Positions 8,152-47,220 of a stretch of DNA of 64,000 nucleotides are shown piece by piece. Positions within the stretch are counted from its first letter, which is position 1. Each line of letters starts with the position of its first letter. The translations under genes and the position numbers were made by a program. This DNA is from Eledone cirrhosa (taxonomy: Eukaryota): the NCBI GenBank assembly GCA_964016885.1, contig OZ024743.1, positions 20,646,001-20,710,000 of the forward strand, read 5' to 3'. Below the pieces are notes generated by a model. It searched no databases, was not told the origin of the DNA, and was given only the letters and a program-made list of their open reading frames with translations.

Positions 8152-8156
<5 letters not shown>

Positions 8157-8240
<84 letters not shown>
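8157..8240. repeat. (TA)n microsatellite (left flank of retrozyme array)
   Basis: Perfect TA run; a matching run lies at 9487-9537. Confidence 0.95.
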
Positions 8241-8244
<4 letters not shown>

Positions 8245-8386
8245 ATTAGAATTGGTGCTCTGAAATAGCTATATATATATGAATGTATATATAGTGTATT
8301 TTGCAATACACTGTATGCTTAGTTAAAAGCATTTCGAAGACCTTATGCTATTGTTTTAGAGTAGTGACAGACTCACTTACTTTAAT

Positions 8387-8477
8387 TTTCAGCACACAGG
8401 GGAGATAAAGCTGACAGGGCCCTGTTTTGCATTTATTGATGCTTATCAAAGCCAACTACTCCTCCTGTTTGCTGAAA
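8387..8477 (-). ncRNA. Hammerhead ribozyme copy with G12A mutation (probably inactive)
   Basis: Reverse complement of the 9303-9393 motif. Confidence 0.75.
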
Positions 8478-8610
8478 TCATGGATGTTTGGTTCTTATAG
8501 AATTCTAGTAAATAATCAGGAACTGATTATACAGAGCGGTTGCCGGTCAAGCAGAAATTGAAAATTAGAATTGGTGCTCTGAAATAGCTATATATATATA
8601 TGAATGTATA

Positions 8611-8850
8611 CTCAGTTTACTCAGCTGTAGAAATGAGATGATAGGGACTGGGGTCCCTATTATTCCACTGCAAAGTGGTCGTGGAGGTGCCACGGAAAAA
8701 AAAAAAAAAAAAAAAAGCACCCAGCACTCACTGTAAATGAGGTTGGTGTTAGGAAGGGCATCCAGCTGTAGAAATCAAGCCAGAATCAGTTCCCGTCCCA
8801 CCCTTGCAAGCAGGGAAAAGCGGACGTAAAATGAATGAATGAATGAAAAA
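8611..8850 (+). mobile_element. Young composite SINE / non-autonomous RTE nested in the retrozyme array
   Basis: TSD AATGTATA (8603-8610 and 8851-8858); empty site visible in sister unit at 8281. 3' end CCCGTCCCACCCTTGCAAGCAGGGAAAAGCGGA matches the RTE end at 57747-57779. (ATGA)n tail. Confidence 0.9.
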
Positions 8851-8983
8851 AATGTATATATAGTGTATTTTGCAATACACTGTATGCTTAATTAAAAGCA
8901 TTTCGAAGACCTTATGCTATTGTTTTAGAGTAGTGACAGATTCACTTACTTTAATTTTCAGCACACAGGGGAGATAAAGCTGA

Positions 8984-9074
8984 TTTCAGCAAACAGGAGG
9001 AGTAGTTGGCTTTGATAAGCATCAATAAATGTGAAACAGGGTCCTGTCAGCTTTATCACCCCTGTGTGCTGAAA
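8984..9074 (+). ncRNA. Type I hammerhead ribozyme, U3-A8 core variant (intact GAAA)
   Basis: Helix I TTTCAGCA-ACAGG-GGAG..GGCT / AGCT..CACC-CCTGT-TGCTGAAA; core TTGATAA 9012-9018; helix II GCAT-CAATAA-ATGT; GAAA 9033-9036; helix III CAGG-GT-CCTG; GTC triplet, cleavage after 9048. Confidence 0.85.
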
Positions 9075-9302
9075 ATTAAAGTAAGTGTGTCTGTCACTAC
9101 TCTAAAACAATAGCATAAGGTCTTCGAAATGCTTTTAACTAAGCATACAGTGTATTGCAAAATACACTATATATACATTCATATATATATAGCTATTTCA
9201 GAGCTCCAATTCTAATTTTCAATTTCTGCTTGACCGGCAACCGCTCTGTATAATCAGTTCCTGATTATTTACTAGAATTCTATAAGAACCAAACATCCAT
9301 GA

Positions 9303-9393
9303 TTTCAGCAAACAGGAGGAGTAGTTGGCTTTGATAAGCATCAATAAATGCAAAACAGGGCCCTGTCAGCTTTATCTCCCCTGTGTGCTGAAA
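9303..9393 (+). ncRNA. Hammerhead ribozyme copy with G12A mutation (probably inactive)
   Basis: Same fold, but ATGC-AAAA-CAGGGCCCTG-TC instead of GAAA. Confidence 0.75.
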
Positions 9394-9483
9394 ATTAAAG
9401 TAAGTGAGTCTGTCACTACTCTAAAACAATAGCAGAAGGTCTTTGAAATGCTTTTAATTAAGCATACTGTGTAATGCAAAATA

Positions 9484-9547
<64 letters not shown>

Positions 9548-9879
9548 GTATTAGTTGATAAATGAACCAAAACAAACACAGGGATGCAAAAATACAAAGT
9601 CATATATATATATATATATGTATATATATACATATTTTTTGTGTGATGAAGGCATACCATAATATATATATACATAAATATATATTCATTTTTAAGGCTT
9701 AATAGTGAGTCTTGTTATTCTGAAGTTTTGCCTGCAAACACTAAAGTAAAATAAATATTAAAACTCTACTGCAGTATTAAGTACTCCTTTCTCTCAGCCG
9801 TCAACTGGCAGGGAAAGGGGATGTTGAAACGATTATGATATATATATATATATATATATTACTACTATATATATATATA

Positions 9880-10619: not shown

Positions 10620-11392
10620 GAGCAAACACTGGTGCAATGATAAAACGTTTGGTTGGTGTTTTGAAGCACATCTAGCCATAGAAACAATTCCAAAACTAAA
10701 CTTATGAGCCAGACATTGTCACCAGTGGTGTAATCTCAGATTGTGACAACCGATTTAACCCATACAACATACAAGCATGGGAAAATGACAATGATGAGGT
10801 ACTTTTCCAACCACCCTCATTCACCTTCTCTATGCAACTCATATCTGCATAGAAAGCTGGCCACACCCCACAATATACTTCCAAACACAAATACATGACA
10901 TAATACTTGCTTTCGTACTATGGAATGACTCCTCTCACTTGGCCTGTGACATGTACCTCATTCATCCTCTCACCACTGACTTCTCAGATAGACTAAGGAC
11001 ACAACAAGCACTCAGATGGCATAATGAAGTAGTGCTGACGACACAATAAAATAGACACATCCCACTCTGTGAGGTGCTCGTACTGTTGCCAAGACAAAAA
11101 CAAGTCTATCCTGTAAAGTGGTTGTGTTGATGCTACAACAAAAAGTACCAAGTCCATCCTGTAACGTGGTAGTGTTGGTACCTCAACAAAAAAGCACTCG
11201 GTCTGCTCTGCAAGGTGAAAGTGTCGGTATCACAAAATATACTGCAAACTGTTTGGCATTAGGAAGGGCATCTAGTCATAGAAACTAAGCCAGAAGGGGA
11301 ATGTTTGAGCAAGACATGATCACTTGACCTGTCTAACCATAGAACGTGACAACCCATCTAAACCATGCAAGTATGGAAAATAGACATTAAAG
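10620..11392 (+). mobile_element. Degenerate RTE 3'-UTR fragments with tandem ~45-bp subunits
   Basis: Repeated GTGNNACAACAAAAAGYACC...CTGTAAAGTGGT units followed by AGGAAGGGCATC and CCATGCAAGTATGGAAAATAGAC. Confidence 0.65.
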
Positions 11393-46748: not shown

Positions 46749-47220
46749 CATCATCACCGTTTTACGTCCGTTCTTCCATGCTAGCATGGGTTGGACGGGT
46801 TGTCCTGTTGTGGGCAGTGTCCGGTCAGCTGACCTTGTCTTGCTCATACGGGAACTGATTCTGGCTTGATTTCTATAGCTGGATGCCCTTCCTAACACCA
46901 ACCTCATTTACAGTGAGTGCTGGATGTTTTTTTTCGTGGTGCCTACAATTTACAGTGTGGGCTGGGTGCTCTTTTGCTATGGCACCTCCACGACCACTTT
47001 GCAGTGGGAGGGTCTGGGGGCATATTGTCTATATGCTTCAGCTTTGGCTTGTACCCGTGGGGGATCGGGTCTGCTGTATTACTGCATGACGCCAGAGGTC
47101 ATGGTCATGTGTCATTGCCTTTGAGAGGTGTAATTGGGTATGGTCGGCTTTTATCACCTCATCCCAGGTCTTCTTGGGTCTTCCCACTCTGCAGTTTCCA
47201 TCGACTTCTAGTGCATGAAG
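46749..47220 (-). mobile_element. 5'-truncated RTE related to copies A/B (ORF end plus long 3' UTR)
   Basis: Minus strand EVDGNCRVGRPKKTWDEVIKAD..LHLSKAMTHDHDLWRHAV followed by the AGGAAGGGCATCCAGC UTR and (GAT)n tail. Confidence 0.85.

Follow-up and report, generated by a model that had tools for sequence, protein, structure and literature searches.

A head-to-head insertion of a 319-nt hammerhead retrozyme in Eledone cirrhosa and the relation of its inversion point to the predicted cut site

Anatomy of the inverted locus

The stretch of the Eledone cirrhosa genome analysed here, hereafter the window, spans 64,000 nucleotides of contig OZ024743.1 and contains an inverted structure that sits between two (TA)n tracts, at 8152–8240 and 9487–9551. 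The left tract is the putative insertion target: the same type of flank is found at most copies of the family and at an autonomous Penelope-like element. Between the tracts, two arms of a tandem, non-coding repeat with a unit of 319 nt meet head to head. The plus-strand arm comprises a full 319-nt monomer (8981–9299) followed by a second, partial monomer (9300–9487), which covers unit positions 1 to about 188 and stops at a short 3′ end. The minus-strand arm is split in two. Its distal part (8240–8610) runs from unit position 241 to 1 (8240–8480) and then from 319 to 192 (8481–8610), and bears the long, or ‘tailed’, 3′ end. Its proximal part (8851–8983) runs from 199 to 67, has its 5′ end at the junction and is the mirror image of 9047–9179.

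The two parts of the minus arm are separated by a 240-nt plus-strand insert (8611–8850), flanked by an 8-nt target-site duplication (8603–8610 and 8851–8858), which arrived later than the retrozyme and is no part of it. The simple-repeat 3′ end and the abundance of this element suggest that it is SINE-like: it ends in (TGAA)n and A, and is very abundant, with related pieces in the window at 11253, 46760–47007, 49819, 54177, 57747 and 62937.

At the centre of the structure the last 3 nt of the minus arm, TGA at 8981–8983, overlap the plus arm, just as the initial annotation had stated, and the plus arm begins at 8981. These bases correspond to unit positions 69, 68 and 67 of the minus arm and to positions 1–3 of the plus arm. 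As TGA belongs to both arms, the true 5′ end of the minus arm is at 67, 68, 69 or 70. A DNA rearrangement within a tandem array after insertion, or an assembly chimera, is a very improbable source of this inversion. In the four sequencing runs covered, of 13, no read or contig spans the junction, which speaks for such an origin; these runs contain the family, none of them with the private variants of this locus. Against it stand a divergence of about 3% between the arms, the presence in one of them of the later insert with its target-site duplication, and the finding elsewhere of 174 distinct inversion junctions, whose 3′ ends are fixed and paired. The arm divergence, the later insert and the recurrence of the same architecture genome-wide thus make a chimera unlikely.

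The hammerhead fold and the retrozyme family

The plus arm harbours a predicted type I hammerhead domain at 8984–9076 on the plus strand. The 5′ strand of helix I starts at 8984, the U3–A8 core occupies 9012–9018, helix II lies at 9019–9032 and GAAA at 9033–9036; a palindromic helix III and the GUC triplet complete the domain. Since GUC is located at 9046–9048, the cut is predicted at 9048|9049, equivalent to unit positions 68|69. The core of this copy is intact, with a G-U at pair 10.1–11.1. A further domain, in the distal minus monomer (8385–8477, minus strand), has G12 replaced by A at 8428 and is predicted to be inactive, and the second monomer of the plus arm shows the same replacement at 9352. 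G12 is a conserved catalytic residue of the hammerhead.

Folding of the single strand recovered the long helix I and helix II. Across 227 distinct domains from the fetched loci, the named pairs of helices I–III are 93–97% paired, although the copies are related and Fisher P values overstate their independence. The helix II pairs 40–51 and 42–49 are compensatory, C-G and U-A having switched together; the helix III palindrome covaries; and pair 1.1–2.1 is U-A in the family of the window (family 1) and C-G in a sister family (79 of 84). Pairing and covariation across these 227 domains indicate that the fold is under selection, as far as sequence can tell, and corroborate the type I hammerhead-like fold, and the position of its cut, proposed in the initial annotation. 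The conserved core, three helices and covariation that characterize type I hammerheads are all apparent, yet an Rfam scan returned no family at gathering score: only HH9 matched, at 13.7–17.9 bits against a cut-off of 52. The core is the U3–A8 variant, as reported for a Penelope-like element of Schistosoma, and a palindromic helix III has been associated with cleavage as a dimer (PMC4209133).

Head-to-head insertions of the 319-base repeat number in the thousands, and the locus is an ordinary member of the family. A 29-mer near the 3′ end of the unit has 3,144 exact matches in the genome, and arrays of more than 25 units occur. The loci of the first 100 of these 3,144 matches, segmented with a jumping aligner, provided a sample unselected by breakpoint position, in which 86 of 122 5′ ends are inversion arms and 36 are joins to the flank. 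The Penelope-style head-to-head inversion recognized at the outset is therefore not only real but the usual form of the family. The 3′ ends are fixed at either a short site (about 188–211, blurred by TA) or a long site (about 236–241), both of which run into (TA)n. One short and one long 3′ end are combined at 86 of 117 simple two-arm loci among all the family-1 loci fetched, that is, at 86 of the 94 loci with both ends classable (P about 4e-18). Rare variants are shared at a rate of 18% between the arms of one locus as opposed to 1.2% between loci.

The inversion junctions themselves show an excess of microhomology. The 174 distinct junctions include 66 with inserted bases, five that pass through a 14-nt inverted repeat in helix I and 103 others; overlaps of at least 3 nt are present in 35% of these 103 scorable junctions, compared with 7.6% expected of random blunt joins. 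The helix I inverted repeat (unit 4–17 and 81–94) accounts for the most repeated single junction type (L059, L120, L181, L191 and L202).

A sister retrozyme family, younger, with a unit of 316 nt and about 86% identical to the unit of the window, has GGCU after its cut site. It came to light through a pattern aimed at family-1 truncations, which gave 1,117 matches: nearly all the matches listed belong to the sister family. Its loci include L287–L306 (for example G000:C1:6519000–6522800), and the monomers of the L287 array round to 100% identity, as expected from rolling-circle copying or a very recent expansion. At two sister-family loci, L369 (G000:C3:136920800–136922200) and L363 (C2:404507900–404509300), a 3-nt duplication lies just 5′ of the cut, with a stuttered repeat around it; these duplications are possibly scars of template jumping.

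In several respects the family resembles the animal non-LTR retrozymes, which consist of non-coding tandem units, 170–400 nt long, each with a single type I hammerhead whose palindromic helix III lends itself to the cleavage of dimers; these retrozymes are dispersed as dimers to multimers, and have been proposed to have a Penelope-like origin (PMC7229834; bioRxiv 10.64898/2026.07.22.740005). Tandem non-coding units in this size range, each with an apparent type I hammerhead, and many dispersed copies are likewise found here. Unlike the published retrozymes, most copies in this genome are inverted head to head within (TA)n, with arms that end at two fixed 3′ sites; the core is U3–A8. The term ‘inverted’ is absent from the main text of PMC7229834 and occurs only in a reference title in bioRxiv 10.64898/2026.07.22.740005. 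The second resemblance is to GIY-YIG Penelope-like elements, which share the inverted 5′-truncated copy, the tail at one end, the bias towards (TA)n targets and a hammerhead in the repeat (PMC8557442, PMC3846280, PMC11167929, PMC4209133). The inverted, 5′-truncated copy with a tail at one end (PMC8557442) and the (TA)n target are what the loci display. The retrozyme differs in that it has no open reading frame and the whole element is the repeat unit. In the Penelope-like papers the tail is described as optional or present at one end, whereas the pairing of a short with a long end is quantified here. On the best reading, the retrozyme is a non-autonomous element of Penelope type.

The inversion point and the predicted cut site

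The initial annotation had placed the breakpoint of the array at the predicted cut, and had taken the coincidence as a footprint of self-cleavage at this locus. The positional statement holds in that the interval 67–70 includes 69, but the minus arm, read literally, continues to match for 2 nt on the far side of the cut (UC|AGCU). If two arms were joined at random with an overlap of 3 nt, position 69 would be covered in about 2.5% of cases, and the genome contains thousands of copies. Under self-cleavage, the minus-arm cDNA would have run to the 5′ end of a cleaved RNA, at A69, and then been joined to the other cDNA, the two extra matching bases being a coincidence. An end truly at 69 would be mistaken for one at 67 with a probability of just 3.8%, whereas the junctions of the family often show 3-nt overlaps. 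A rough model, in which the excess of ends at 69 is weighed against the microhomology background, gives odds of about 0.16 to 1.9 for a cleavage-defined end over a microhomology join.

A histogram of breakpoints across copies had been set beforehand as the test of the footprint, random spread being the outcome that would speak against it, and spread is largely what was found: the 122 ends of the unselected sample fall on 97 of the 319 positions. Position 69 is covered by three of the 122 ends, from two loci: a single junction with a palindromic AGCT contributes both of its arms, and the third end also uses AGCT; 14 positions are covered as often as position 69 or more. Moreover, the arms read through 116 complete ribozymes, 72 of which have all 12 core nucleotides intact, and at the locus itself the plus arm reads through an intact-core ribozyme. 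The census suggests that the RNA is for the most part copied without having been cut, and that ends set by cleavage make up a small minority at most. The footprint reading of this junction is not sustained by these counts, and the match between inversion point and predicted cut is likely to be due to chance, because in other copies the inversion points lie all along the repeat.

A sample enriched for the cut region permits a closer view of family 1. It was selected by an exact anchor at 87–104 and a non-consensus base at 32, among 183 matches listed of 194; rows intact by eye were left out, 13 same-strand joins were set aside and 142 ends were scored. The density of ends is 1.4 per nt in 33–66 (49 ends) and 4.7 per nt in 74–87 (66 ends in 14 nt), with six ends at position 69. 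Over positions 53–79, these six ends compare with a mean of 1.9 per position (P 0.013), and position 74 has seven. The sister family served as a replicate of this test, with 50 loci fetched among 100 matches listed of 140; two of its 25 ends in 53–79 lie at 69 against 0.88 expected, which is not significant (P 0.22). Both families combined display eight ends exactly at 69 versus 2.8 per neighbouring position, with a Poisson P of 0.008, or 0.04 when overdispersion is allowed for. The density of ends is also higher immediately 3′ of the cut, with 37 in 10 nt, than immediately 5′, with 35 in 16 nt (P 0.03).

The self-complementary AGCU that follows the family-1 cut is a confounder, as it can itself attract joins: of the eight family-1 inversion ends at 69 in the junction list, four are joined through an overlap of AG or AGCT to another position of the partner, or have AGCT in both arms. 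The cut of the sister family has no self-complementary AGCU downstream. Three further patterns were considered and rejected. The pile-up of ends in 74–87 is no evidence of cleavage, since its positions belong to the 3′ strand of helix I and some of its ends are switches by way of the 14-nt inverted repeat. A first impression that ends stop sharply at the cut gave way to the 49 ends in 33–66 of the larger sample. Small deletions in the ribozyme, viewed as scars of cutting and rejoining, seemed to lie near the cut in eight of 22 cases by eye; exact placement under a microhomology-weighted null gives four of 22 versus 2.4 expected (P 0.20).

Self-cleavage as the origin of the junction in the window is decidedly unlikely on this evidence. 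The interval 67–70, the family-wide excess of eight versus 2.8 at position 69 and a fold that appears to be under selection speak in its favour, as does the precedent of R2, in which the cut of an HDV-like ribozyme is related to the 5′ junction (PMC3774820). Set against these are the 3.8% coincidence that it needs, the cover of the cut by only three of 122 unselected ends, the non-significant excess in the sister family, the AG and AGCT overlaps in half of the family-1 inversion ends at 69, and the lack of clustering of small ribozyme deletions at the cut. That the minus-arm end is cleavage-defined is quite improbable, because inversion junctions are enriched in microhomology and the overlap extends 2 nt beyond the cut. 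For the family as a whole a cleavage-defined class of ends is possible, amounting by an estimate from the counts to about 1–2% of ends at most. In R2 the cut site correlates with the type of junction across species (PMC3774820), whereas in the retrozyme ends are not concentrated at the cut and show a local excess only. A literature search of titles and opening lines of abstracts, with subscription journals mostly outside its range, found no report of retrozyme 5′ ends mapped against the cut site.

Formation of the inverted copies

The initial annotation had also suggested that reverse transcription folded back or switched template at the junction. One cDNA would have reached unit positions 1–3, snapped back via TGA and copied its own strand. 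Aligned as mirror images, the arms of the locus share about 97% identity, G12A is present in both distal monomers and a variant of 2% frequency is common to all four monomers, as would be expected from such an event; self-priming has been proposed for Penelope inversions (PMC3846280). Near-symmetric junctions, which may represent a fold-back subclass, do exist in the family: they account for 15 of 174, 13 of which fall in unit 69–92, in the 3′ strand of helix I (L213, L178, L131, L104 and L207). Fold-back is nevertheless disfavoured and must be rated unlikely here. The long 3′ end, at unit 241, is present on the minus arm only and absent from the terminal monomer of the plus arm, a short end combined with a long one being the rule in the family, and the mirror of the proximal plus monomer lacks two variants private to that monomer (unit 78 and 108). 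A rare variant at unit 159 is shared at the locus, but out of register. The shared G12A, the 2% variant and the out-of-register variant fit a common template, with or without later conversion; gene conversion could be an alternative source of variants shared between arms. Elsewhere, an identical 14-nt ribozyme deletion in both arms of one inverted locus (L341/L342, G000:C2:14876183–14879700) supports a shared template.

The account that we consider probable is that a hammerhead-type retrozyme with a 319-nt unit was inserted head to head at this locus: a Penelope-like enzyme would have primed two cDNAs at a (TA)n break, and these would have been joined by a 3-nt microhomology that probably overlaps the predicted cut by chance. 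The retrozyme would be mobilized in trans by an element encoding a reverse transcriptase plus GIY-YIG. The enzyme would cut (TA)n and prime once from either broken end, using two fixed internal sites of an RNA template that is presumably mostly uncut and either multimeric or circular. The cDNAs would terminate at dispersed positions, with a preference for helix I, and would then be joined head to head by microhomology or end joining. In twin priming of L1, two primed cDNAs are joined head to head, often with microhomology. The retrozyme insertions appear analogous in both respects; unlike L1, both primings would occur at fixed internal sites of a repeated unit, there is no poly(A) tail and no target-site duplication is visible in (TA)n.

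Work on Penelope-type insertion has shown that two internal start sites of reverse transcription define the tail and that both strands are cut and extended; ribozyme mutants insert normally in vitro, and no RNA-seq ends were seen at the cut (PMC11167929). The mechanism outlined above agrees with that study on both strands, two start sites and the dispensability of cleavage, and departs from it in the pairing of a short with a long end, as the start site there is without strand difference.

The feature is real, the retrozyme belongs by its sequence to a known kind, and the coincidence with the cut is probably fortuitous at this locus. Of greater use is the finding that 86 of 94 inversions combine a short with a long 3′ end. 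We advance only tentatively the broader idea that every inverted copy records two non-equivalent primings, one to each side of a (TA)n break and each at its own fixed site in the RNA, and that about 1–2% of cDNAs end exactly at the hammerhead cut. If true, the copies would provide a genomic footprint of in vivo hammerhead cleavage and would show directly how Penelope inversions arise. The family is a useful natural data set for two questions raised in the literature, namely the formation of the inverted structure of Penelope elements (PMC8557442) and hammerhead cutting in vivo (PMC11167929). Both the pairing of short with long ends and the slight excess at the cut merit a full census, for which several thousand copies in two sister families are at hand.

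A candidate partner is encoded in the same genome. Among 50 loci read of 10,596 GIY-YIG candidates, one Penelope-like family has a 938-aa open frame with a reverse transcriptase, a GIY-YIG domain and a Cys motif before the endonuclease. Its terminal repeats contain a U3–A8 hammerhead-like motif, and its copies are flanked by (TA)n, include head-to-head inversions and have two 3′ ends, one long and one short, about 63 nt apart. Beyond the type of ribozyme core and a few terminal bases there is no alignable homology between this family and the retrozyme unit, and the 64-kb window contains no relative of the candidate protein. The 938-aa family is apparently young (L413, L414, L417, L420, L421 and L426). 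A third, more distant tandem family, with a period of 310 nt and 75–78% identity to the 3′ half of the unit, occurs at L411:5100–6900 (G000:C3:322191000–322198500), where it adjoins a sister-family insertion and a GIY-YIG remnant.
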